From NCBI GenBank assembly GCA_963761285.1, contig CAVXGJ010000008.1, positions 86,062-150,061 of the forward strand: 64,000 bases of DNA, written 5' to 3'. Below the pieces are notes generated by a model, which had not been told where the DNA came from, made no database searches, and was given only the letters and a program-made list of their open reading frames with translations. This document shows positions 1 through 11,348 of the stretch, piece by piece; positions within the stretch are counted from its first letter, which is position 1; each line of letters opens with the position of its first letter. The DNA comes from an uncultured Actinomycetota bacterium (GTDB lineage Bacteria > Actinomycetota > Actinomycetes > Propionibacteriales > Nocardioidaceae). Made by a program: the position numbers and the translations under genes.

Positions 1-1389
1 GCGAGCGCGGCACCTGCCTTCGCCGCCAGTGGTCTGCCGTCGATCGTCGTGCTGTCGTCGCGGAGCGACTGCCGTCCCGGCGTCGGCTACGTCGCGGTCC
101 GTCTCGATCCCGATCCGCCGGTGGTGCCCAACCCGGTGGTGACCTACAGCGATCTCGGTGCGAGCACCGCTGGGTTCAGCCGCACCGGCACCGACGGTGC
201 GGCGGGCCTCTTCCAGCTCCACTTCACGACCACCACGCGCCCGGTGCCCGCGACGATCACCGCCACGATCAACGTCGCCGGCTACGGCTCGGACGTCGCC
301 GTCGTCACGATGAAGACCCCGGGCACGATCGACACGACGCTCGCCGACGGCCAGCTCACCAACGGCGGCTTCACCAGCGTGCAGGCGATCCTCGTCCAAC
401 CTGACGGGAAGATCGTGGTCGGCGGCAACTTCACCAGCGCCCGCGGCGTGGCCCGTCGACGCCTGGCCCGCCTCAACGCCGACGGCACGCTCGACACGAC
501 CTTCGCCGACCCCGACCTGAACGGCGACTGCTACGCGCTGGCGATCCAGCCGGACGGCAAGATCCTCGCGGCGGGAGCCTTCACCCAGGTCGGCGGTGTC
601 GCGCGCGGTCGCCTGGCCCGGATCACCAGCACGGGCACCCTCGACACCGGGTTCGCCGACCCCGAGCTCGACGAGGCCGCTCACGCGATCGCGGTGCAAA
701 GTGATGGCAAGGTCCTCGTCGGCGGCAACTTCACCGCCGCCGGCGCCACCGCGCGGGCCTACGTGGCTCGCTTCGACGCCGCCGGAGCGCTCGACTCGTC
801 CTTCCAGGACCCGGCGTTGGACGCTCGGTGCTACGACGCAGTGCTCCAGTCGGACGGCAAGGTCGTCGTCTGCGGTGACTTCGCGGCGGTCGGTGGGGTG
901 ACCCGCACCCGCCTGGCGCGGCTGCTGCCGAGCGGGGCCCTGGACACCGCTTTCGTCGACCCCGTCCTCAGCGCGCGCGCCTATCGGGTCGCCCTCCAGC
1001 CGGACGGCAAGATCCTGGCGACGGGTGAGTTCACCTCGGTCGGCGGCGTCACGCGTGCCCACCTGGCCCGGCTCGACACCACGGGCAGCCTGGACACCGG
1101 GTTCCCCAACACGTTCCTGGGCGCCCGCGGGCGCTCGGTCATGGTGCAGCCCGACGGGGCGATCGTCGTCACCGGCGACTTCGCGGCCGTCGCGGGCGTG
1201 TCCCAGCGACGTCTCGCTCGCTTCAGTACGGCGGGCGTCATCGATCCGTGCTTCGACGACTCGGCGATCACCGCTCCGTGTCTCGACGCCGCGCTCCAGA
1301 GCGACGGCAAGATCGTCGTGTGCGGCGAGTTCGTCCAGGCCGGCGAGGGCAGCACTGCTCGCGGACGGGTCGCACGCTTCCACGGCTAG
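1..1389 (+). CDS. Delta-60 repeat (beta-propeller-like) secreted/surface protein, 5' end outside window
   Basis: Frame is open from base 1. About six repeats of LxxxGxLDxxF..D...AxQxDGKIxxxGxFxxxxGxxRxRLAR. Confidence 0.8.
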   Translation, partial: ASAAPAFAASGLPSIVVLSSRSDCRPGVGYVAVRLDPDPPVVPNPVVTYSDLGASTAGFSRTGTDGAAGLFQLHFTTTTRPVPATITATINVAGYGSDVAVVTMKTPGTIDTTLADGQLTNGGFTSVQAILVQPDGKIVVGGNFTSARGVARRRLARLNADGTLDTTFADPDLNGDCYALAIQPDGKILAAGAFTQVGGVARGRLARITSTGTLDTGFADPELDEAAHAIAVQSDGKVLVGGNFTAAGATARAYVARFDAAGALDSSFQDPALDARCYDAVLQSDGKVVVCGDFAAVGGVTRTRLARLLPSGALDTAFVDPVLSARAYRVALQPDGKILATGEFTSVGGVTRAHLARLDTTGSLDTGFPNTFLGARGRSVMVQPDGAIVVTGDFAAVAGVSQRRLARFSTAGVIDPCFDDSAITAPCLDAALQSDGKIVVCGEFVQAGEGSTARGRVARFHG

Positions 1390-1416: not shown

Positions 1417-1614
1417 TCATGATCGCTCGACCCTCAGCGCCAGGCGGGGGCACGCGCGCGCTGCGGCACGAGCCTCGGACAGGCGGACGTCGTCGACTTC
1501 GCCGACGACGAGCGGGTAGCCCCACTCGTCGAGGTCGATGATCTCGGGCAGCAGCTCATGGCACAGTCCGTGCGCTTCGCACGCGGGCCAGTCGATCCGG
1601 ATCCGGTGGGTCAT
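1417..1614 (-). CDS. Small ferredoxin (3Fe-4S type)
   Basis: IDWPACEAHGLC...CPRLAL; ATGA overlap with the upstream gene. Confidence 0.85.
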   Translation of the reverse strand: MTHRIRIDWPACEAHGLCHELLPEIIDLDEWGYPLVVGEVDDVRLSEARAAARACPRLALRVERS

Positions 1615-2870
1615 GACGCACCCACTCGAGCTGCGATGCATGATCCGGCGGCATGAGCAGCCAGCTCGTCGGCAAGCGCGACCAGGGCCGAGCGGACCAG
1701 TCGGCTGGTGCCATCAGGGTGCGCGCAGGCGCCGCGCCGTTCGACCAGACCCACCAGCTCCTCGGCTCGTCGCCGAGCGATCAGGTCGCCGTCGACCAGG
1801 CCACGGACGGCGTGGGCCAACGCCGGCAGCCCGTTGAAGCAGGGACCGCAGCGCCCCGCGCTGCTGGCGGCGAGATGCGCCACGATCTCCGCAGTCAGCT
1901 CCAACGGGCAGCCTCCGGGGCCGGGGGCGTGCACCACCCCGGCGCCGAGGGTCGAGCCGAGGGCGCGCAGTCCGGGCACGGAGATCGGGGCGTGCCGCAG
2001 CTGCTCGGGAGTCAGCCAGGTGCCGTGGAAGCCGCCGACGAGCACCGGGTGGTCTGCCTGACCGTCGCGCAGCACGCGCCGCAGCGGGGTGCCGAAGGCC
2101 ACTTCGTGCACCTGGGGCCGTTGCCCCGGAGCGCTGAGGGTCAGCAGGGTGGTGCCCGGCTCGTCGGTCGTGCCCAGACCGTCGTACGCCGCCGGGCCGC
2201 GGAGCGCGAGCAGGCCGACGTGGGCCCAGGTCTCGGCGTTGGAGAGCAGGGTGGGTCGACCGTTGAGGCCGGCCACGGCGTCGGGTTGCCACGCGGTCAC
2301 GGGGAGCCCGGGACGTCCTGACAGCAGCTCGAGGACGGCTTTGGACTGCCCCGCCACGAAGCGGGCCTCGGCCGTGACGACGTGCCATCGCAGGCGGGAG
2401 CCGGGCTCGGATCCGCGCTCCGCGATCGCGCGGGTCATCGCGTGCTGGGCTCGAGGACGGTCTCCAGGAAGGACCACGTGGAGGTCGCGCGCGCCGATGG
2501 CCAGCGCCGCTGCCTGCGCGCCGTCGAGCACCAGGTGCGGAGACACCATCAGCAGCGCGGCGTCCTTCGCGCTGGCGGGCTCACCCTCGGCGGCGTTGAC
2601 GACCACGACCGGACGACGTCGTCCCGAGATGCCGCGACCCTGCGCGACCACCGTCTCCAACTTGGTGGCGAAGGGGAAGGCGGCCCCGCCCCGCCCGCGA
2701 ACTTCTGCGGCCCCGACGACGCGGGTGAGCTGATCGAGACCCGCGTCGAGCAGCGCTCCGTGACGCCGGCGGTGTGCCGCGAGGCCTGGACCGTCGACCA
2801 GGCCTGCGAGCAGCGCCGGCCCGGGGCGGATGTCGAGATCATCGGTGGGCTGGACGGGGGAGAGGGTCAT
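1611..2870 (-). CDS. NuoF-like NADH:flavin/Fe-S oxidoreductase
   Basis: GRGGAAFP, VVVNAAEGEPASAKD, SNAETW and the 4Fe-4S motif SAGRCGPCFNG...CAHPDG; start at MTLSPVQ from ATGA overlap. Confidence 0.85.
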   Translation of the reverse strand: MTLSPVQPTDDLDIRPGPALLAGLVDGPGLAAHRRRHGALLDAGLDQLTRVVGAAEVRGRGGAAFPFATKLETVVAQGRGISGRRRPVVVVNAAEGEPASAKDAALLMVSPHLVLDGAQAAALAIGARDLHVVLPGDRPRAQHAMTRAIAERGSEPGSRLRWHVVTAEARFVAGQSKAVLELLSGRPGLPVTAWQPDAVAGLNGRPTLLSNAETWAHVGLLALRGPAAYDGLGTTDEPGTTLLTLSAPGQRPQVHEVAFGTPLRRVLRDGQADHPVLVGGFHGTWLTPEQLRHAPISVPGLRALGSTLGAGVVHAPGPGGCPLELTAEIVAHLAASSAGRCGPCFNGLPALAHAVRGLVDGDLIARRRAEELVGLVERRGACAHPDGTSRLVRSALVALADELAAHAAGSCIAARVGAS

Positions 2871-3475
2871 CTGGTGCTCCGCTGCAAGAGTGCGACCGGC
2901 TCGCGCCGACCACGGAGGAGGCGATAGCCGAGAGCAGCCGCCACGACGCCGATCGAGGCCAGGGTCGGCACGGTGGCCCAGGTTGCCCAGGTGCTCGGTT
3001 GACGCAGATCGGTGCCGATGCCGATGCCGTGGACGACCCCGCTCAGCCAAGCGCCCCAGGAGGCGTAGTGGACGGTGCGCCAGGTCCGCTGCCCGAGACG
3101 GCCGCGCAGCATGGTCGTGATCACGACGACGAGGACGAGATCGAGCGAGACCGCGCCCAGGCCCAGCCAGAGGGGCTCGTACGTAGCGCCGAACGGCACG
3201 ATCGCTTGCCACCAGCGGATGTCCACATAGGTGTCGACCACGGCGGTGAGGACGTGGACGACGAGCGCCACGATCGAGAGCAGTGCGAGGTTGCGGTGCA
3301 GCTTCTGGGACACGAAGCGAGGTAGCCGGGAGCCGCCCTTGCCGCCGACGCGCCCGCCCAGGGCCAGGACGCCCAGGGCCGTGCTGGCGCTGAGGAGGAC
3401 CATCAGCGTGATACCGGTGCCGCGGTTGAGGAACCACAGAAGCGGGCCGTCGAGGACCGCGCCGGTGGCGGTCAC
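2867..3475 (-). CDS. Ferric reductase-like transmembrane (haem b) protein
   Basis: Multiple TM helices with LHRNL, VHVL, WRTVHYASW and HGIGIGTD His motifs. Confidence 0.85.
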   Translation of the reverse strand: MTATGAVLDGPLLWFLNRGTGITLMVLLSASTALGVLALGGRVGGKGGSRLPRFVSQKLHRNLALLSIVALVVHVLTAVVDTYVDIRWWQAIVPFGATYEPLWLGLGAVSLDLVLVVVITTMLRGRLGQRTWRTVHYASWGAWLSGVVHGIGIGTDLRQPSTWATWATVPTLASIGVVAAALGYRLLRGRREPVALLQRSTR

Positions 3476-4422
3476 CGCCCGGCACCGTCAGGAGCGGATG
3501 CGGGCCACGAGCCGACGGTGCTGACCTCGCCGTCGCGAGCGACCAGGCGGGCGGCCAGGCCAGGCATGGTGCGGGCCGCGAGCCAGTCAAGAGCGTCGTG
3601 ACCGAGCACGACCGCTGCGGTGCTGGCGGTGTTGGCCGCCACGCAGGAGGGGGCAGCGACAGTGACCGTGCGCCAGACCTCCCGTGAGGGCTCGCCGGTG
3701 CGGGGGTCGAGCAGGTGGTGACGGTGGTGTCCTCCCCGGGTCCAACGGCGGACCCGGGTGCTGGAGGTGGCCAGCGCGCCACCCCGCAGCTCCACCTGCT
3801 GGGCGAGCGGACCGTCGGGCTGCTCGGAGATGTCGACCAGCCAGGCCGCGTCGCCGACCGTGGCCAGGTCGCCGCCGACGCTCACGACGGCGCCGTGGTC
3901 GAGGTGCTCCTGCAGCGCGGTGGCAGCCAGGTCGGCGCACCAGGCCTTGCCGGTCGCTCCCAGGTCCAGGGCGGTCCCTGCAGGGATCCGAAGGGCGCCG
4001 CCGGGGTCGAGGTCGATCTCCCGCCATGACGACCGACTGGGCGGGGCCGTCTCGAGGACGCCGCCTGAGGGCAGAGCCACGAGGGCTCCGAAGTCCCGGT
4101 CGTAGCCGAGCTCGACCAGCGCCTGACCCAGGAGCGGGTGCACGAGACCGTCGGTGTCGGCAGCAGCGGTGCAGGCGACCATCACCGCACGCACCAGGAG
4201 GGGGTCGACCTCGACCCACGTGCCGGCCATGGCGTTGACGCGGCTGAGGTCCGAGTCGGTCCGGAATCTGCTGGCGACGTCGTCGACGTCGCGCAGGACC
4301 TGTTCGGTGAGGCCTCGGGCCATGTCGAGCTCAGCCGCCTCCTCGACGCCGACATGCACGAGGCACCCGAGCGCCTCGAAGCGAACGGCGTCGCGCGATC
4401 GCGCCGACGGCTCCGTGAACAC
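3472..4422 (-). CDS. apbE: FAD:protein FMN transferase (ApbE family)
   Basis: SRFRTDSDLSRVN, LDLGATGKAWCAD, SVGGDL, ALATSS, HHLLDPRTG, ANTASTAA. Confidence 0.9.
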   Translation of the reverse strand: MFTEPSARSRDAVRFEALGCLVHVGVEEAAELDMARGLTEQVLRDVDDVASRFRTDSDLSRVNAMAGTWVEVDPLLVRAVMVACTAAADTDGLVHPLLGQALVELGYDRDFGALVALPSGGVLETAPPSRSSWREIDLDPGGALRIPAGTALDLGATGKAWCADLAATALQEHLDHGAVVSVGGDLATVGDAAWLVDISEQPDGPLAQQVELRGGALATSSTRVRRWTRGGHHRHHLLDPRTGEPSREVWRTVTVAAPSCVAANTASTAAVVLGHDALDWLAARTMPGLAARLVARDGEVSTVGSWPASAPDGAGR

Positions 4423-4423
4423 G

Positions 4424-4937
4424 TCAGGAACCGCTCGAAGGGGCCGGCTGCGGGGCCGGTTGCGGGGCCGGTTGCGGCGCGGGTGGGGGCGGGTTGGGGT
4501 GCGGGTTGGGGTGCGGGCTGGGCGGGTTGCCGGACCGGGGCCGGCTGGACCGGTGGTCGGGACGGCGCGCTCACGCTCGGCGTGGAGGTCGGGGCGCTCG
4601 ACCCGGCCGCCGCGGCTCCGGTGATGTAGCGAGTGGTCGTGCGGGTCTCTGTCGGGCGCTGCTTGAGCCTGGTTCCAGTCGCCTTCCTGGTCTTCCTACC
4701 CGGGGCCGTCTTGACCTGCGTCGAGAGTCGTGGGTCGACCGCTGTGCCGGCGTCCGCCTCCTGGTCCGCGCCAGAGATGACCTGCACCTCCGCCTGCTGA
4801 TCCTGCTGCACCGCCAAGGCCCGCGCCGCGTTGCCGGCCATCAGTCCGGTCGCCGCCACTGAGCTCGCCGCCACGATGCCCGTCGTGGCCGCGACAGCGA
4901 GGCGGTAACGGTCTCGGGTGCTGGAGGTGTAGGTCAT
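4424..4937 (-). CDS. Membrane-anchored Pro/Ala-rich protein, first gene of the apbE operon (one frameshift near 4470)
   Basis: N-terminal hydrophobic helix and PAPQ repeats. An alternative frame ends PAPQPAPSSGS-TGA 1 nt before the apbE GTG. Confidence 0.65.
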
Positions 4938-5018
4938 GACCGGAGCCTGACGGGACCGACGCCATGAGCACCTCAGGAGCGGGTCAAGCCCACGTCAAAA
5001 AAGTTCTTGACCTCGAAT

Positions 5019-5046
5019 TGAGGTTCTCACGAGGTGCGGCTGAGGT
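5019..5046 (+). promoter_or_regulatory. Three YGAGGT direct repeats at 11-bp period, candidate OmpR-family binding site
   Basis: TGAGGT 5019, CGAGGT 5030, TGAGGT 5041; reverse copies at 5010 and 4970; lies in a divergent promoter region. Confidence 0.55.
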
Positions 5047-5068
5047 GCCGGGGGCCAGGGTGTCGACC

Positions 5069-5704
5069 ATGCCCCGACCCCACAGGTTGTCCTTCGTCCG
5101 CCGCACGGCCTGGCTCACCGCCGGGATCGCGACCACCTCGCTCGCTGTAGGCCTGGTCGGTGCGACCATCGCCTATCGCGCTGCCGTGGGTCCGCCGGTC
5201 AGCGCCACCAGGTCGACAGCATCGCTGCCGCTCGCGGACGCTGCCGCAACACCGGTGGCGAGCCAGTCGCCCGCTGCGACGACCCGACGCCAGGACGTAC
5301 GAGCCCGAGCCAAGGTCCGGTGGGCGCCTTGCGCACCGACCGCGGTGCTGGAGAAGGGGGTCTGTGTCACCGACGTCGTGCGCACCGTCGTCCTGCCACC
5401 TACGCCCTCGTCCGTGCCCTCGTCCGTGCCCCCGGTTGCGCAGCCGGTGGTGCAGGCGCCGGCTCCGTCGACCCCCGCGGCTCCTTCCCCGCCGCCTGTG
5501 CGCCACGACAGCCCGGCGGCCTCGACCGGTCAGGCCGGCGATCACGGCGACGATCACGGAGATGACCGCGGCGACGACCACGACGACGACCAGGACGACG
5601 ACCAGGACGACGACCAGGACGACGACCACGGGGATGACGACGAGGATGACGACGGGGACGACGACCACGGGGATGACGACGAGGATGACGACGAGGACGA
5701 CTGA
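5069..5704 (+). CDS. Membrane-anchored protein with His/Asp-rich C-terminal tail
   Basis: N-terminal TM, Cys pair (CAPT...GVCV), Pro-rich linker, tail DHGDDHGDDRGDDHDDDQ...EDD. Confidence 0.7.
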   Translation: MPRPHRLSFVRRTAWLTAGIATTSLAVGLVGATIAYRAAVGPPVSATRSTASLPLADAAATPVASQSPAATTRRQDVRARAKVRWAPCAPTAVLEKGVCVTDVVRTVVLPPTPSSVPSSVPPVAQPVVQAPAPSTPAAPSPPPVRHDSPAASTGQAGDHGDDHGDDRGDDHDDDQDDDQDDDQDDDHGDDDEDDDGDDDHGDDDEDDDEDD

Positions 5705-5705
5705 G

Positions 5706-7022
5706 TCAGGCCTCCGCGACCGGCAAGGTCACCTGCACCCGCGCACCGCCCTGGCTCGGGGAGTCCCGCTCCAGCCGGCCGCCGGCCGCGGTCGCCGTAC
5801 GCGATGCGATGTCGAGCCCGAGACCGGTGCTGCCGGGCCGGTGGTGCTCGACCGTCGCTCGGTCGGGGAAGCCGGGGCCTTCGTCGGCGACGACGAGGAC
5901 GGCGACATGGGGTTCCGTGCGCAGCTCGATGGAGAGGGCAGTGCCTTCGGTGGTGTGGGCGAAGACGTTGTCGATCAAGATGTCGACGAGGTCGCGCAGG
6001 TCGTCGTCGGCCAACGACACGGTCAACGGTCCGGCGGCCAGGCTCGTGCTCAAGGTGCGGCCCTGGTCCTCCGCGAGTGGGCGCCAGAAGTCCAACCGTG
6101 CAGTGACTCCTGCCGCCAGGTCGCTGGAGGCCGCGAGGTCGGTTCGCACCGGCCGGCGAGCCTCGCGCACGATGGCATCGATGGTCCGCTGGAGGACGGC
6201 GATGTGCTCGCCCAGTCGCTGCGCAAGCATCGGGTCGCTCACTGCTTCGGCGTCCAGGCGGAGCGCCGTGACCGGTGTCCGCAAGCGGTGCGACAGGTCC
6301 CCGACGGCTGCCCGTTCGCTGATGAGAAGCTCGGAGGTGCGCTCGGCCAAGCCGTTGAGGGCGCGAGCCAGCTCCTGGGTCTCTGCGGTGCCCACCACCG
6401 GGGCCCGTGCCGCGAGGTCACCTTCCCGGAGCCGGTGGGCGGTCTCGGAGACACCTCGCAAGGGGTCGCTGATCCGCTTGCCGAGTCGCAGGGCGACGAC
6501 GGTGGCCAGCGTCATGAGGAGCAGCCCCAGACCGATGATGCCGATCCACGCCGCCGTCACGCCTGCTCGCAGCTCATCACCGTCGACGGTGCTGCGGACC
6601 ACCGCGGTGCCGTCGTTGACGATGACGGGCAGCAGGACCCTCCCGCTGCCGCCGGTGACGCTCCGGAAGGCTTCGCCGTCGAGGGCGCGAGCGACGTCGG
6701 GATCAGTGGACATGTCCGGGCCGCCGCCGATCTGTGCCCCATCGGGGGTCAGGACCGAGGTGGTCGGCTCCTGCTCGACCGAGATCCCGGCGAGCAGCTC
6801 CGCCAGCTGGTCATCGTTGCTGACGCCGGAGACCAGGATCGCGACGTTGCGAGCCTCCTGATCGGCCGTGGCCATGGCCCGGTCCTCCGCCAGCGTCCGG
6901 ACCAACAGGCACAGCGGGATCACGAATGAGACCACCACGCTCGACGTCGTTGCCACGACCAGCCAGGAGATCCGGTGGCGCATCATGCCTGGCCCTCGAC
7001 CGGCCCGCCACGGTCGAGTCAT
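5706..7022 (-). CDS. Sensor histidine kinase (2 TM, HAMP, HisKA, HATPase)
   Basis: DLSHRLRTPVTALRL H-box, DILIDNVFAH, VADEGPGF, GLGLDI; ATGA overlap with the regulator stop. Confidence 0.92.
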   Translation of the reverse strand: MTRPWRAGRGPGMMRHRISWLVVATTSSVVVSFVIPLCLLVRTLAEDRAMATADQEARNVAILVSGVSNDDQLAELLAGISVEQEPTTSVLTPDGAQIGGGPDMSTDPDVARALDGEAFRSVTGGSGRVLLPVIVNDGTAVVRSTVDGDELRAGVTAAWIGIIGLGLLLMTLATVVALRLGKRISDPLRGVSETAHRLREGDLAARAPVVGTAETQELARALNGLAERTSELLISERAAVGDLSHRLRTPVTALRLDAEAVSDPMLAQRLGEHIAVLQRTIDAIVREARRPVRTDLAASSDLAAGVTARLDFWRPLAEDQGRTLSTSLAAGPLTVSLADDDLRDLVDILIDNVFAHTTEGTALSIELRTEPHVAVLVVADEGPGFPDRATVEHHRPGSTGLGLDIASRTATAAGGRLERDSPSQGGARVQVTLPVAEA

Positions 7023-7708
7023 GTCGGGTCCACGAGCCGCACGCCGACGCCGCGCACGCTCACCAGGTAGCACGGGTTCGCGGCCGTCTCGCCGAGCTTG
7101 CGGCGCAGCCACGACAGATGTACGTCGACGGTGCGGTCCGAGCCGCCGTACGCCTGCTGCCAGACCTCGGCCAGGAGCTCGTTCTTGGTCACGACCTCGC
7201 CGGCCCGCGTCGCCAGGAGGTAGAGCAGGTCGAACTCCTTGCGGGACAGCTCCAAGGGCTCGCCGCGCAGAGTCGCCTCGCGGGTGCGCTCGTCGATCGA
7301 CAGCTCTCCCACCCGCACGGGCGGCACCGGCTCGACGTCCCGACCCGGGCCGCCGCGGCGCAGCACCGCACGGATGCGGGCGGCGACCTGGTCGGTGCCG
7401 AAGGGCTTGACCACGTAGTCGTCGGCACCGTTGTCGAGCGCCGAGATCATCGTCGGGTCGTCGTCCTGGGCGGTGATCACGATGATCGGCACCTGGCTGG
7501 CGGCGCGGACCATGGAGATCAAGGTGAGCCCGCCGATGTCGGGAAGGCCGAGGTCCAGCAGCATCACGTCGGGGTGGTTCGCGAGCACCTGCTCGAGCCC
7601 GGCCAGCCCGGTGCTGACGGAGGCCACCGCGAAGCCACGCTCGCTCAGCCCACGATGGACGGCGCCACGGATCGCCGCATCGTCCTCCACCAGCAGGATG
7701 CTCGCCAC
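7019..7708 (-). CDS. OmpR-family response regulator
   Basis: ILLVEDD, LLDLGLPD, GADDYVVKPF, winged helix RTVDVHLSWLRRKLG. Confidence 0.95.
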   Translation of the reverse strand: MASILLVEDDAAIRGAVHRGLSERGFAVASVSTGLAGLEQVLANHPDVMLLDLGLPDIGGLTLISMVRAASQVPIIVITAQDDDPTMISALDNGADDYVVKPFGTDQVAARIRAVLRRGGPGRDVEPVPPVRVGELSIDERTREATLRGEPLELSRKEFDLLYLLATRAGEVVTKNELLAEVWQQAYGGSDRTVDVHLSWLRRKLGETAANPCYLVSVRGVGVRLVDPT

Positions 7709-7763
7709 GTCTCGACCTTAGCCATCGCGCGACGACGCTTGGCCGAGGTAGGAGAATGAAGAC

Positions 7764-8450
7764 ATGCTGAGTGGTTACCGACCGGTGGTGCTCGGCCTCG
7801 TCGCCTGGCTCGCCGTGGTGCTGGTGGCGTCAGGGTTGGTCTGGACGGTGATCTCGCGCGCCGGCGCCGACGTGATCGCCGGCGGCACGTCGCTGCCGCC
7901 CCACGCGACCGGTGCGGTGGGGCCGGCAGAGGTGTCGCCGGCCACGCCGACCCGGAGCGGTGCGCGAGACCGCAGTCGGGATCGCGACCAGCAGCCCGGC
8001 TCGACATCGCCCCCCTCGACCACGGCGACCGCGCCCGACTCGAGCTCGCCACCGTCGAGTGCGCCCACCCCGCTCCCGCAGCCCTCGAGCACGGCTGGGC
8101 CAAGTGCATCGGCAACGTCGCCGAGCAAGACCCCGGCGGCGACGCCCACACAAGCGCCGTCTGGCGCGTCGAACCCACCGTCCTCGTCCTCGTCCTCGTC
8201 GAAGAGTCAGCAGCGCACCTGGTCGGGAGCAGCCGGGGTGGTGACTGCCGAGTGCCGGGGATCGGCGATCTCGCTGGTGGGGGTCAACCCGTCGGCCGAC
8301 GGCTACGCCGTCGAGGTGAACAACCGCGGGCCGGAGGAGCTCGAGATCCACTTCGAGGGCCGAGGAGACGAGGACGGCAAGGAGACCGAGCTCCGGGCCG
8401 AGTGTCGGGGCGGTGTGCCGGCCTTCGATGTCTCCGTGGGCGACGACTGA
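7764..8450 (+). CDS. Membrane-anchored protein with Ser/Pro/Thr linker and small Cys-pair C-terminal domain, divergent from the two-component system
   Basis: TM helix, low-complexity linker, domain VTAECRG...GYAVEV...RAECRGG; RBS AGGAGA. Confidence 0.7.
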   Translation: MLSGYRPVVLGLVAWLAVVLVASGLVWTVISRAGADVIAGGTSLPPHATGAVGPAEVSPATPTRSGARDRSRDRDQQPGSTSPPSTTATAPDSSSPPSSAPTPLPQPSSTAGPSASATSPSKTPAATPTQAPSGASNPPSSSSSSSKSQQRTWSGAAGVVTAECRGSAISLVGVNPSADGYAVEVNNRGPEELEIHFEGRGDEDGKETELRAECRGGVPAFDVSVGDD

Positions 8451-8566
8451 CGGTGCACGGCTGGTGCGGGCACTCCCGTGAAGTAAAGAATGTGGCATCC
8501 GGGTCCTCGTGGTCGGAGTCTTCTCTAGCCTCGAGAAGGTCCTGTTCGTCCAGCGAAGGATCTGTC

Positions 8567-9241
8567 ATGACTCAGTCCACCTGGCGCGCGTTCGGCGCAG
8601 CCCTGCTCGCGATCTGTCTGCTCGGTACCGTCGGCTCGGTGTCCTACGCCGCCGGATCCAAGGTGGTCGCCCTCGGCACCGCCAACAAGTCGTCGAAGGC
8701 GACCACGCTGCAGACCAAGAAGGGCCCAGCGTTGGTCCTCAAGACGAAGAAGTCCTCACCGCCGCTGAAGGTGAACTCCAAGAAGCGCGTAGCCAAGCTC
8801 AACGCCGACCAGGTCGACGGACTGGACGCCGAGCAGCTCGCTCCCGCGACGACGACGTACACGTTCGGTGAAGCCGGCGATCGGGGCAACGCAGACACCT
8901 TCCTCGTCGAGAACTCAGGGACCGGGACCTACCGCATGGACGTCAACGCGTCGCTGGTGCCCGCAGGCCCCGCATCGAAGATCGGGTTCTGTGGTCTGGG
9001 GGTGTTCGAGGCCGGAGAACACAGGTACGTAGCCGGTTCGTCTGCGCCGATGGATGAGGCTGTGGGTTGGCGCGCCAACGTCAGTGCATCCAAGATCGTC
9101 ACGCTCGCGCCTGGCGAGCGGTTGTCCGTCAGTTGTCTGGTGGACCAGGGCACGTTCAGCTACTACGACGCCTACCCGCTGACGGTCTCGCTGACGCCGG
9201 TGCTCGAGGAGTCCTTCGCCACGTTGACCGAGTTCGATTAG
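8567..9241 (+). CDS. Secreted hypothetical protein
   Basis: Signal peptide ending SYA; Lys-rich segment and NADQVDGLDAEQL motif; RBS GAAGGA. Confidence 0.7.
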   Translation: MTQSTWRAFGAALLAICLLGTVGSVSYAAGSKVVALGTANKSSKATTLQTKKGPALVLKTKKSSPPLKVNSKKRVAKLNADQVDGLDAEQLAPATTTYTFGEAGDRGNADTFLVENSGTGTYRMDVNASLVPAGPASKIGFCGLGVFEAGEHRYVAGSSAPMDEAVGWRANVSASKIVTLAPGERLSVSCLVDQGTFSYYDAYPLTVSLTPVLEESFATLTEFD

Positions 9242-9268
9242 CAGCACCGAGGCGCGCCGTGCAGGGGG

Positions 9269-9323
9269 TCGTCCACAGCCACGCCGCAGCCATGTGCCGT
9301 GCGTCGGCCCCCGCCGTTAGGGT
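9269..9323 (+). promoter_or_regulatory. dinG promoter: DnaA-box variant plus PafBC-like element and -10 (leaderless)
   Basis: TCGTCCACA 9269; CGTCGG-N10-TAGGGT 9302-9323; GTG 6 nt after the -10. Confidence 0.5.
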
Positions 9324-9329
9324 GCTCTG

Positions 9330-11348
9330 GTGCCTGACGCCCCCAGCCCCGAGACCACCGCCGACTCCGCGGTGCACACGGTGCTGGCCACGGCTGTCGC
9401 CGCCCTCGGCGGGGCCGAGCGCTCCGGGCAGGTCGCGATGGCCGATGCCGTCGGCAACGCGTTCCGGAAGAAGGAGCACCTGCTGGTGCAGGCCGGCACC
9501 GGCACCGGCAAGTCGTTGGCCTACCTCGTGCCCGCACTGGTGCACGACAAGCGGGTCGTGGTCGCGACGGCCACGCTCGCGCTGCAGCACCAGCTCGTCG
9601 AGCGTGACCTTCCGCGGCTGGTCGAGGCGGTCAAGGGCTCGCCGGGCGTCGACACCTCCTACGCCGTGCTCAAGGGCCGCTCCAACTACGCCTGTCTGCA
9701 CCGCATCCGCGAGGGCGTCCCCGACGACCAGGGGGTGCTGGTCGACGTGCCCCAGGGCTCGATGGCCGAGAAGGTGCTCGAGCTGCGTTCGTGGGCCGAG
9801 AAGGAAGCCACCGACAAGGGCTCGGGGGAGCGCGACGCCGCGCCCCGCCATACCGACCGGGAGTGGCGCCAGGTCAGCGTGGGCCACCGCGACTGCCTGG
9901 GTGCCACCAAGTGCCCCTTCGGCCAGGAGTGCTTCGCCGAGGTCGCCCGCGAGAAGGCCCAGCGCTCCCACCTGATCATCACCAACCACTCGCTGCTCGC
10001 GATCGACGCGATCGAGGGCATCCCGATGATCCCCGAGTACGACGCCGTGGTGATCGACGAGGCCCACGAGCTGACCGCGCGGGTCACCCAGGCCGCCACC
10101 GACGAGCTGACCTCGGCCGACGTCGAGCGGGCCGCGCGCCGGTCGGTGCGCCACGTCGAGGGCAACGAGGCCGACGACCTCGCCGATGCCGGCGATGCGC
10201 TGCGCGATGCGATGGCCGAAGCCCGACCGGGCCGGATGGAGCGACTGCCTCCCGAGCTCTCCGACGCCCTGGTGCTGGTGCGCGACGCCGCCCGCGCCTG
10301 CCTGTCGGCCTACCCGAAACCGTCCGACGCCAAGGGCAAGGACGGGGAGGCCGATCCCGGCCTCACCCAGGCCAAGGGCACCGTGCAGGACGTCTTCGCG
10401 GTCGCCGAGCGGATGGCGGCCTGCGCGGCGACCGACGTGCTGTGGCTCAACGAAGGCGGCACCGGCGAGCGCAGCCGGATCCCCCCGCGCCTGGCCATCG
10501 CTCCGCTCGAGGTGTGGGGGCCGATGCGCGACAAGCTCCTGACCGACAAGACCGTGGTGATGACCTCGGCGACGCTGATGCTCGGAGGCGACTTCTCCTC
10601 GCTCGCCACCAACGTCGGGCTCAAGCCGACCGAGCGCGTCGGGCGCACCGACGACGCCGACTTCGGCGAGGACGCCCAGCCGTGGGTCGGCCTCGACGTC
10701 GGTTCGCCGTTCGACTACGCCCAGCAGGGCATCCTCTACGTCGCCCGCCACCTGCCGCCGCCGGGCCGCGACGGTCTGGTCAAGGCCCAGCTCGACGAGA
10801 TCGTCGAGCTCGTCGATGCCGCCGAGGGCCGCACGCTCGGGTTGTTCTCGAGCCGGCGCGCCGCCGAGGCCGCGGCCGAGGAGGTCCGCACCCGGCTGCC
10901 CCACCTGACGACGCTCGCGCAGGGCGAGGCGCAGCTGCCCGAGCTCGCCAAGCAGTTCGTCAGCGATCCCCACACCTGCCTCTTCGGGACCCTCAGCCTC
11001 TGGCAGGGTCTCGACGTGCCGGGGGAGACCTGCCAGCTGGTGCTCATCGACAGGATCCCGTTCCCCCGCCCCGACGACCCGTTGATGAGCGCGCGGCAGA
11101 AGGCCGCCGACGCGGCCGGCGGCAACGGCTTCATGCAGGTCGCGGCCACCCACGCCGCGCTGCTGCTCGCCCAGGGCTCCGGCCGGCTGATCCGCACCAC
11201 CACCGACCGCGGGGTGGTCGCCGTACTCGACCCGCGGCTCGCGACGGCCCGCTACGGCTCGTTCCTCAAGGCCTCGCTGCCGCCGATGTGGACCACCACC
11301 GACCCGGCGATCGTGCGCAAGGCGCTGGCCCGGCTGGCGGCCGGCTGA
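9330..11348 (+). CDS. dinG: ATP-dependent DNA helicase, DinG family
   Basis: QAGTGTGKS, KGRSNYAC Fe-S cysteines, DEAH, GVDVPG-like GLDVPG, QGSGRLIR. Confidence 0.93.
   Translation: MPDAPSPETTADSAVHTVLATAVAALGGAERSGQVAMADAVGNAFRKKEHLLVQAGTGTGKSLAYLVPALVHDKRVVVATATLALQHQLVERDLPRLVEAVKGSPGVDTSYAVLKGRSNYACLHRIREGVPDDQGVLVDVPQGSMAEKVLELRSWAEKEATDKGSGERDAAPRHTDREWRQVSVGHRDCLGATKCPFGQECFAEVAREKAQRSHLIITNHSLLAIDAIEGIPMIPEYDAVVIDEAHELTARVTQAATDELTSADVERAARRSVRHVEGNEADDLADAGDALRDAMAEARPGRMERLPPELSDALVLVRDAARACLSAYPKPSDAKGKDGEADPGLTQAKGTVQDVFAVAERMAACAATDVLWLNEGGTGERSRIPPRLAIAPLEVWGPMRDKLLTDKTVVMTSATLMLGGDFSSLATNVGLKPTERVGRTDDADFGEDAQPWVGLDVGSPFDYAQQGILYVARHLPPPGRDGLVKAQLDEIVELVDAAEGRTLGLFSSRRAAEAAAEEVRTRLPHLTTLAQGEAQLPELAKQFVSDPHTCLFGTLSLWQGLDVPGETCQLVLIDRIPFPRPDDPLMSARQKAADAAGGNGFMQVAATHAALLLAQGSGRLIRTTTDRGVVAVLDPRLATARYGSFLKASLPPMWTTTDPAIVRKALARLAAG

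Follow-up and report, generated by a model that had tools for sequence, protein, structure and literature searches.

The transfer of electrons from reduced nicotinamide nucleotides (NAD(P)H) to the outside of Gram-positive cells, when neither quinones nor multihaem cytochromes take part, is only partly understood. The closest described systems are the "MsrQ-like" flavinylation-associated gene clusters, of which 1797, mostly actinobacterial, were catalogued by Meheust et al. (2021, eLife, PMC8238504), 31 of them with a NuoF-like protein (PF10589); an NAD(P)H donor, a flow from the cytosol to the outside and, for some clusters, iron reduction were proposed in that work. In our study, a locus of this class was analysed computationally in a window of 64,000 nucleotides (positions 86,062 to 150,061 of contig CAVXGJ010000008.1, assembly GCA_963761285.1) from an uncultured bacterium of the Nocardioidaceae. 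It carries on its minus strand, in the order of transcription, genes for a small Pro-rich protein (called here the tail protein), an ApbE-like protein, an MsrQ-like haem membrane protein, a NuoF-like flavo/iron-sulphur protein and a ferredoxin, and upstream of these a His/Asp-tail gene (plus strand), the genes of a sensor kinase and a response regulator (minus strand) and the gene of a second anchored protein (plus strand). We consider it somewhat probable that the locus is an accessory module for transmembrane electron export, regulated by this two-component system, in which a flavin is carried on the terminal Ser of the tail protein.

Membership in the published survey was defined by a PF01794 gene within five genes of an ApbE or FMN_bind gene, together with a signal peptide or lipobox on the ApbE, FMN_bind, DUF2271 or DUF3570 protein (PMC8238504). 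At the present locus the PF01794 and ApbE genes are adjacent, the required signal is absent and no FMN_bind, DUF2271 or DUF3570 protein is encoded; the locus would probably have been filtered out of that survey. As in the described MsrQ-like clusters (PMC8238504; PMC11334425), ApbE stands beside a PF01794 two-haem protein and a NuoF-like protein is the presumed entry for NAD(P)H. Unlike the typical clusters, there is no FMN_bind protein, the ApbE has no signal and bears Asn in place of Asp, and the candidate acceptor is a tail without any domain, whereas the ferredoxin and the two-component system with its operator are not described for MsrQ-like clusters in these two papers. The class is already catalogued, and what is new is a variant in which the ApbE is of the Asn type and lacks a signal, the candidate acceptor has no domain, the presumed donors are a NuoF-like protein and a ferredoxin, and the two-component system comes with a candidate operator of its own. 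An earlier sequence-only reading of this DNA had proposed a chain from NADH through the NuoF-like protein and ferredoxin to the haem protein and the outside; the cofactor motifs fit such a flow, but as a model it is not new, being the published one.

The same genome (G000) contains a second, canonical flavinylation locus (contig C19:94293-97139; L028 4293-7139). It encodes a ferric-reductase transmembrane domain fused to an FAD/NAD-binding domain (495 residues; an MsrQ-FNR fusion), a transmembrane-anchored FMN_bind protein with the motif DMVSGAT, the only FMN_bind protein of the genome, and a coupled ApbE that retains the catalytic Asp. Both loci have a protein of the ferric-reductase fold, the gene of an anchored (in the window, candidate) acceptor upstream of and coupled to that of ApbE, and an ApbE without obvious signal. 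They differ in that the window locus has the NuoF-like protein and ferredoxin as donors instead of the fused FAD/NAD domain, no folded FMN_bind protein and the Asn-type ApbE.

Short peptides as flavin carriers are known as well. In the review PMC12052999, ApbE is stated to recognise the seven-residue motif D-x-x-[ST]-G-A-[ST], to work best on tags at protein termini, to tolerate loss of the Asp from the motif and to accept Ser as target. For FMN_red proteins it has been demonstrated by experiment that a C-terminal extension without structure is flavinylated (Huang et al. 2024, mSystems, PMC11334425). With these and with the flavin-tag (Tong et al. 2021, reviewed in PMC12052999), the tail protein shares a short unstructured terminal peptide and a Ser as predicted acceptor. 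They differ in that the known tag motif is D-x-x-[ST]-G-A-[ST], whereas the tails close with [ST]-x-G-S, and in that FMN_red offers its flavin a folded site to dock back into, whereas the tail proteins have no folded domain. In the flavin-based extracellular electron transfer of Listeria (Ndh2/EetAB/PplA/FmnB), an ApbE-type enzyme likewise works with a flavinylated protein that is tethered at the surface and is the final carrier still bound to the cell, an arrangement that is only predicted here. The Listeria protein PplA, however, is anchored by a lipid and contains folded FMN_bind domains, FmnB is a secreted protein, and quinones carry the electrons, where the window locus would use a haem protein supplied by its NuoF-like protein.

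The five genes would in this way make a compact wire of a NuoF-like donor, a ferredoxin, a cytochrome of the STEAP/NOX fold and possibly a flavin carrier without a fold. If the tail is truly flavinylated, the substrates of ApbE would include not only folded domains but also a bare peptide at a protein terminus, in which the engineered flavin-tag would have its counterpart in nature, and a clade of Asn-type, signal-less ApbE proteins would be defined. The conserved regulator and operator and the probably co-regulated His/Asp-tail protein give a handle on the inducing signal and the physiological acceptor of the MsrQ-like class.

Composition of the module and its proposed electron path

The window has a G+C content of about 72% and most of its long open reading frames are spurious; the real genes were picked by domain searches, which were Pfam and NCBIfam profile scans of the window proteins. 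All genes of the sequence-only reading were recovered at their positions in these scans and in a check of the reading frames, and its description of one coupled operon is literally true. The minus-strand junctions are TGAcGTG between the tail and ApbE genes, GTGA between the ApbE and MsrQ-like genes, and ATGA both between the MsrQ-like and NuoF-like genes and between the NuoF-like and ferredoxin genes.

The ApbE, MsrQ-like, NuoF-like and ferredoxin genes are conserved together as a unit in 6 of 18 genomes of the same genus and also in other Actinomycetota, in Dormiibacterota and in Chloroflexia, and the gene order is kept in other families of the taxonomic order. The broader scan took one genome per species and its listed matches are a sample; among these, the four-gene set was found in Kibdelosporangium, Symbioplanes, Gaiellaceae, Solirubrobacteraceae and one metagenome-assembled genome (MAG) each of Dormiibacterota and Chloroflexia, while Streptosporangiales and a Streptomyces have a set of three genes that lacks ApbE. 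Of 301 genomes sampled evenly across the phylum, 34, belonging to 20 of 199 genera, have a relative at E <= 1e-38. The module is patchy and accessory, yet clearly one unit. The ApbE-less loci L030, L031, L032 and L034 (about 8000-10500 in each) encode a divergent MsrQ-like protein and a NuoF-like-ferredoxin fusion of 485-504 residues. The neighbours of the ApbE-less modules gave no common theme for an acceptor: they include DUF4142, DUF1996 and a secreted BBE-type FAD oxidase in Herbidospora (L030), this oxidase again in Streptosporangium (L034), and a Lipoprotein_15 repeat protein in Streptomyces (L031).

Four His residues of the MsrQ-like protein (H60, H74, H136 and H149) are invariant in 21 orthologous sequences, with the spacing H-x13-H and H-x12-H that is seen in NOX, FRE and STEAP proteins. 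Its AlphaFold (AF2) model, with a predicted local distance difference test (pLDDT) score of 84, has five long helices, as against the six transmembrane helices of solved ferric reductase domain proteins, and the His pairs lie on helices 2 and 4. The best Foldseek matches of the model are STEAP4, STEAP1, STEAP2 and SpNOX (probability 1.0, TM-score about 0.6). The protein is probably a di-haem cytochrome b. Since the distribution of basic loops predicts an outer N-terminus and an inner C-terminus, one haem site would lie at the inner and one at the outer side of the membrane. The protein has the bis-His pattern of STEAP, NOX/SpNOX and E. coli MsrQ and appears to share their fold, and differs from these in having five predicted helices and not six, no fused dehydrogenase, no MsrP partner and a separate NuoF-like protein and ferredoxin as donors.

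The NuoF-like protein is not the 51-kDa subunit of complex I. It scores 157.9 bits with the NuoF equivalog TIGR01959, against a cut-off of 558.65; nuoE and nuoG neighbours are absent at the locus, and the genuine NuoF of this genome, encoded on contig C3, is 30% identical to it. The flavin mononucleotide (FMN) loop, GRGGAxFP, is invariant among the orthologues (GRGGAAFP here, as against GxGGAGFP in NuoF), as are C326, C346, C349, C387 and C416. Of the four Cys that make up the N3 cluster in NuoF, the first is Ala in this protein, and C326 and C416 are additional ones. At the NADH site GEET is replaced by GQSK and most acidic residues are retained. The ferredoxin has the motif CxxHxxC...CP, with three Cys residues invariant in 11 orthologues, and its nearest solved structures are the P450-type ferredoxins 6mcw and 4id8; by these features it resembles the P450-type 3Fe/4Fe ferredoxins and would hold a single cluster. 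The NuoF-like protein and the ferredoxin presumably work together, as they are fused in one gene in four genera (Herbidospora, Streptomyces, Actinomadura and Streptosporangium).

The tail protein and its ApbE-like partner

A small, signal-bearing, low-complexity tail protein is encoded in all 21 modules that contain ApbE, and a tail-type gene in none of the 12 ApbE-less modules. These proteins are 81-177 residues long. They begin with a basic n-region, which is followed by a single segment of mild hydrophobicity (Kyte-Doolittle 1.3-2.2), often by an AxA site, and by a stretch rich in Ser, Gly, Thr and Pro before the C-terminal motif. The tail protein of the window has the same layout: its N-terminus is basic, a single mildly hydrophobic segment follows, and a Pro-rich linker of low complexity leads to the C-terminal ...PAPSSGS. 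A variant motif [ST]-x-[GA]-S-COOH is reported on the tail protein in 21 of 21 ApbE-containing modules, two of these ending in GGSG(R). The [ST]-x-G-S endings comprise SSGS, SGGS, TGGS, TAGS, SNGS and SHGS, with STGS and TSGS also seen among intact orthologues; in two loci of the f4 family (L018, L020) the tail gene is located after the ferredoxin gene and its product ends in SSAS.

The terminal Ser is encoded by TCC, TCG or TCA and the Gly by all four of its codons, and junctions without a stop/start overlap retain the Ser as well. GS ends 1.0% of about 3600 crude gene calls in this genome and [ST]xGS 0.14%, and only 4 of 501 gene pairs with a 4-base overlap have an upstream product ending in GS. 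Because the synonymous codons vary and GS endings are rare genome-wide, the tail ending is best seen as a motif of the protein and not as a by-product of translational coupling; the idea that a Shine-Dalgarno or overlap constraint produces the terminal GS was rejected on the genome-wide control.

When the proteins of the locus were scanned, no FMN_bind protein and no canonical D-x-x-[ST]-G-A-[ST] motif was found. The tail is the best candidate acceptor, because ApbE is known to label terminal or unstructured tags and to accept Ser, and because the tail tracks ApbE; its terminal Ser is the likely site of the flavin. The sequence-only reading had seen in it an anchored Pro-rich protein and had missed this probable role, to which the tail motif and the co-occurrence with ApbE point.

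The ApbE-like protein clearly belongs to its family, its Pfam score (Table 1) comparing with a cut-off of 25.6, and it aligns over its full length to the structures 1vrm and 4xdt. At the position of the conserved catalytic, Mg-binding Asp it has Asn (...AANTASTA... as against ...ADALATA... in 1vrm and 4xdt). The conserved residues of V. cholerae ApbE, as named in PMC12052999, are Ser241, His257 and Asp285; the Ser (ATSS) and the His (HHLLDP) of this triad are retained in the window protein, and 20 of 20 module ApbEs carry AN, TSS and HHxxDP. None of these 20 has an export signal or a lipobox, the first conserved strand being reached within a few residues of the N-terminus (as judged by eye). 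The earlier premise that this ApbE flavinylates extracytosolic proteins is therefore unsafe, both for the missing signal and for the Asn in place of Asp.

The tail protein itself is predicted to have its C-terminus outside, either as an N-in/C-out protein or after cleavage of a signal, because the n-region is strongly basic, the residues after the hydrophobic segment are acidic, and twin arginines and AxA sites occur in tails elsewhere. In 14 of 15 tails outside Nocardioides, RR stands directly before the h-region, and many of these have AxA sites; such tails are compatible with export by the twin-arginine translocation (Tat) pathway after modification. TatC is encoded in this genome. Most Nocardioides tails, including that of the window, have the n-region RDRYR, which is not a twin arginine, and the tail of L013 has RRRD.

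In the window the tail gene is frameshifted. Its N-terminal part reads in the frame of the ATG at 4937 and its C-terminal part in the +1 frame, where the conserved ending ...PAPSSGS (PAPQPAPQPAPQPAPSSGS) is encoded and the stop lies at 4426-4424; the frame switch falls between about 4571 and 4480, within a C-rich PAPQ repeat. The reading frame from 4937, if followed, enters ApbE by 241 nt in another frame. This 251-residue Pro-rich frame was rejected as an artefact, since the conserved C-terminus lies in the other frame and relatives have separate frames. The idea that it is the membrane anchor of ApbE, split off by a frameshift, was also rejected, as every relative has two open reading frames with the stop of the tail at the ApbE start. 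In five loci of the same genus the tail is such a separate frame, stopping at the ApbE start and ending in ...PPPAPSSGS (or STGS, DSSGS), and 10 of 10 public homologues (131-158 residues) are intact and end in P[ST][SN]GS. The frameshift is either a real lesion or an assembly error; if it is real, the strain should be without tail-dependent activity.

Module genes that look broken were also observed in relatives. In G009 (L013 8151-9112) the ApbE sequence is spread over two frames, the NuoF-like gene is split in G002 (L016 3415-4887), and the NuoF-like gene of G020 has in-frame TGA and TAA stops (L023 9301-10254). Together with the frameshift in the window, these cases suggest frequent decay or assembly indels in GC-rich genes.

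Probable regulation by a neighbouring two-component system

The response regulator, with Response_reg and Trans_reg_C domains, and the kinase form a two-component system of the OmpR/PhoB type, and their genes are joined by an ATGA junction. The kinase is composed of a transmembrane helix, an extracytoplasmic domain of about 130 residues, a second transmembrane helix, HAMP, HisKA and HATPase, and is of a generic EnvZ/BaeS/MtrB-like kind. The best named model for the regulator is CseB (188.8 bits, below the cut-off of 350), and no named equivalog (CseB, MtrA, BaeS, CopS) of NCBIfam reaches its cut-off for either protein. Regulators 60-78% identical stand beside the module in all loci of the same genus (L013-L017, L029) and in L018, L020 and L036. 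An orthologue of the kinase (at least 52% identity) is present in exactly the six module-bearing genomes of the genus and in none of the 12 module-less ones.

Upstream of the operon lie three to four hexamers phased at 11 bp, (T/C)TTGAC-N5-CTTGAC-N5-CCTGAG(-N5-CTTGCC). In the window, TTTGAC (4999-4994), CTTGAC (4988-4983) and CCTGAG (4977-4972) are directed toward the operon on the minus strand, and CTTGAC (5006-5011) and ATTGAG (5017-5022) toward the His/Asp-tail gene on the plus strand. The repeats are conserved in seven Nocardioides promoters, where they also face the divergent His/Asp-tail gene, and also precede the module in L018, L020 (both copies), L036, L019 and L023. They occur in 11 of 11 promoters (10 loci) with the orthologous two-component system adjacent, and in L019 and L023, a family that has the phased repeats although the orthologous system is not adjacent; they are absent from 10 modules without an orthologous system. 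The link to the two-component system that had been read from the sequence is thus backed by adjacency, by the strict co-occurrence of the kinase and by the conserved operator. The regulator would control the operon and the His/Asp-tail gene through the CTTGAC repeats, and as this gene shares the divergent operator region, the His/Asp-tail protein is probably co-regulated with the operon. The arrangement resembles PhoB/OmpR operators (pho boxes) in its three to four direct hexamers spaced at 11 bp just upstream, beside an OmpR-family regulator; in contrast to pho boxes, the CTTGAC sequence of this putative operator and its regulon are specific to the module.

Further members of the regulon were searched for in the genome. 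The two-repeat pattern, with at most two mismatches, has a background of 0.012 per 200 nt, and 3 of the 23 best genome-wide matches fall in the operon promoter; the composite operator site is unique in the genome. Exact two-repeat matches elsewhere number 4 against 1.4 expected, which is unconvincing. One exact pair, GTCAAG-N5-(C)TCAAG at C12:257261-257276, precedes a lipoprotein gene (MRIARLRPLAAGFAFLLVTSGCAG...) by about 30 nt; this gene may belong to the regulon, or the match may be due to chance.

The His/Asp-tail protein begins with an anchor or signal, contains a conserved WAPCxPxxV..GxCV motif and ends in a long tail rich in Asp and His; its longest open reading frame starts at 4964, and the architecture is the same in all loci of the genus. 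The second anchored protein, whose gene is divergent from that of the regulator, consists of a transmembrane helix and a linker rich in Ser and Pro, followed at the C-terminus by a beta domain of about 80 residues in which two Cys are invariant. This domain is modelled by AF2 with a pLDDT above 90 and seven strands, and in a fold search its sole, weak match was the hypothetical protein lmo2686. A -10-like hexamer (TAGCGT/TAGGTT/TAAGGT) lies about 7-9 nt before the start of the regulator gene in five genomes (window 7709-7763; L029, L014, L015 and L017), a position that suggests a leaderless transcript of the regulator and kinase genes.

Variant arrangements were met in other loci. In L020 (4256-10501, G021), tandem cytochrome/NuoF-like modules stand behind one regulator-kinase pair, each with its own CTTGAC repeats, and the gene of the tail protein, whose C-terminus is KSSAS, lies between the two copies. 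In two Solirubrobacteraceae MAGs (L040 5904-6641 and L067 4711-5385), an extra membrane protein of 224-246 residues is encoded between the divergent two-component system and the tail gene. That of L040 has a faint cytochrome b561 (Ni_hydr_CYTB) match, 17 bits against a cut-off of 30.1, and the protein may be a second haem protein in the Solirubrobacteraceae version of the module.

Proposed mechanism, alternatives and surroundings of the locus

In the favoured reading, NAD(P)H would be oxidised in the cytoplasm by the NuoF-like protein (FMN and one iron-sulphur cluster), which would hand single electrons to the CxxHxxC..CP ferredoxin. The ferredoxin would reduce the inner haem of the five-helix, four-His cytochrome b of the ferric-reductase fold, and the outer haem would reduce a flavin at the outer face. 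FMN is the most likely identity of this flavin; the ApbE-like enzyme, translated together with the tail, would attach it as an ester to the last Ser of the tail protein, which would act as a domain-less flavin on a tether: signal-bearing, disordered, rich in Pro, Ser and Gly, and ending in [ST]-x-G-S-COOH. The tail flavin may then reduce its acceptor, which may be a metal near the co-regulated His/Asp-tail protein, O2 or another oxidant of the envelope. The kinase would sense an extracytoplasmic signal and phosphorylate the OmpR-type regulator, which would bind the 11-bp-phased CTTGAC repeats and activate the operon together with the divergent His/Asp-tail gene. The sequence itself shows the parts of the module with their coupling, cofactor motifs, joint inheritance and operator, and from these the direction of flow, the flavinylation and export of the tail and the control by the regulator are deduced. 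In its most specific form the proposal is tentative, and we place it a little short of an even chance: the tail would be a natural disordered flavoprotein whose Ser is loaded by the signal-less Asn-type ApbE, possibly before export, and which would serve as a tethered or released shuttle at the haem conduit, switched by the two-component system. Metal reduction as the output is a guess, favoured by the STEAP-like fold and by the co-regulated, cation-binding His/Asp tail. The association with VIT1 in PMC8238504 and the iron-limitation phenotype of B. breve apbE::Tn5 concern other systems.

A number of observations weigh against this proposal. The Pfam score of the MsrQ-like protein with Ferric_reduct (Table 1) lies under the gathering score of 28. 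With Asn at the position of Asp285, transferase activity of this ApbE clade is not assured, and the tail motif has Gly and not Ala at -1 and is without the Asp at -6. The NuoF-like protein has lost the first N3 Cys and the GEET of its NADH site, as described above. The tail gene is frameshifted in this very assembly. Export by Tat of a tail flavinylated beforehand is doubtful in Nocardioides, given the RDRYR n-region, and a tail predicted outside conflicts with an ApbE without an export signal. On the regulatory side, no repeats are present in the intergenic region between the regulator and the second anchored protein, nor upstream of the regulator in other families, so the regulator's own promoter lacks them, and binding of the regulator to the repeats is only predicted. 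No transporter, metal-regulator box or partner reductase at the locus points to the acceptor, and our literature search returned no experimentally characterised member of the module.

In one alternative the chain is the same but ApbE and its target are both cytoplasmic, either with an N-out/C-in tail whose flavin shuttles electrons between the NuoF-like protein/ferredoxin and the inner haem or with the FMN fixed covalently on the NuoF-like protein. The lack of an export signal in all 20 module ApbEs agrees with this, and cytoplasmic ApbE proteins are on record, for instance with the fumarate reductase of K. pneumoniae. We nevertheless regard it as unlikely. The ApbE-less modules keep the NuoF-like protein, the ferredoxin and the MsrQ-like protein, which accordingly have no need of ApbE; ApbE follows the tail protein and not the other genes; neither the NuoF-like nor the MsrQ-like proteins have a conserved [ST]GA[ST]-like motif; and the charge pattern around the hydrophobic segment, with the RR and AxA sites elsewhere, points to a tail that is C-out or cleaved. 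That the terminal GS is itself a trace of coupling, arising from Shine-Dalgarno-like GGN GGN codons and a TCR-TGA overlap, with ApbE having another target or being an FAD hydrolase or a binding protein, would suit the GGAGG-like codons and GTGA/ATGA overlaps at many junctions as well as the Asn of ApbE. It is the least probable of the alternatives weighed here, in view of the codon usage, the retention of the Ser without overlap and the rarity of GS among coupled pairs set out above, and of the tails of L018 and L020, whose genes do not adjoin ApbE and still encode SSAS.

Two further readings keep the cytochrome and change its output. It may work as a NOX-like oxidase, passing electrons to O2 and making superoxide or H2O2 outside, with or without a flavin on the tail, as a regulated redox weapon or signal. 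SpNOX and DUOX are indeed returned beside the STEAPs in the fold search, and multi-flavinylated proteins are able to use O2 as acceptor according to PMC12052999; the STEAP metalloreductases, however, score better, the fused FAD/NADPH dehydrogenase domain of NOX enzymes is missing, the unit has no catalase or superoxide dismutase gene, and the co-regulated His/Asp-tail protein points to cations, so that this reading is quite unlikely. Repair of the MsrPQ type, in which the cytochrome would feed a secreted reductase encoded elsewhere and the tail would be only a scaffold or assembly factor, is suggested by the homology to MsrQ-type proteins and by the resemblance of the two-component system to envelope-stress systems (best models CseB, MtrA and BaeS). 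We rate it as very unlikely, because no MsrP-like or thioredoxin-like gene was seen in about 30 loci inspected and because ApbE and the invariant terminal Ser would be left without a role.

The features of the locus are collected in Table 1. Neither Pfam nor NCBIfam gave a meaningful match for the tail, His/Asp-tail and second anchored proteins, which are nonetheless conserved in the loci of the same genus.

Table 1. Coordinates of the features in the window; 1614 (ferredoxin), 2870 (NuoF-like protein), 7022 (kinase) and 5069 (His/Asp-tail protein) are the most likely true starts.
Feature	Position	Strand	Basis
Ferredoxin, 65 residues	1417..1614	-	Pfam Fer4_15 at 1.6e-12
NuoF-like flavo/iron-sulphur protein, 419 residues	1611..2870	-	Complex1_51K and NADH_4Fe-4S
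MsrQ-like / ferric-reductase-domain membrane protein, 202 residues	2867..3475	-	PF01794, 26.6 bits
ApbE-like protein, 316 residues	3472..4422	-	PF02424, 160.9 bits, 5.8e-47
Small Pro-rich tail protein, frameshifted	4424..4937	-	Translations and intact orthologues
Candidate response regulator operator, 11-bp-phased hexamers	4972..5022	.	Conserved across promoters
His/Asp-tail protein	5069..5704	+	Conserved in same-genus loci; no Pfam match
Sensor histidine kinase	5706..7022	-	Pfam HAMP/HisKA/HATPase
OmpR/PhoB-family response regulator, 229 residues	7019..7708	-	Pfam Response_reg and Trans_reg_C
Second anchored protein	7764..8450	+	Conserved in same-genus loci

After the gene of the second anchored protein follows a gene for a protein of 672 residues (9330-11348, plus strand), which we take to be a DinG-like helicase. 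Its position is kept in the same-genus loci L014 and L015, by which the two-component system and module are recognised as an island inserted beside a conserved housekeeping gene. On the other side, positions 1-1389 (plus strand) hold the 3' part of a DUF5122 (delta-60-type) beta-propeller gene with seven repeats (283 bits), which is convergent with the ferredoxin gene and is not kept beside the module in relatives.

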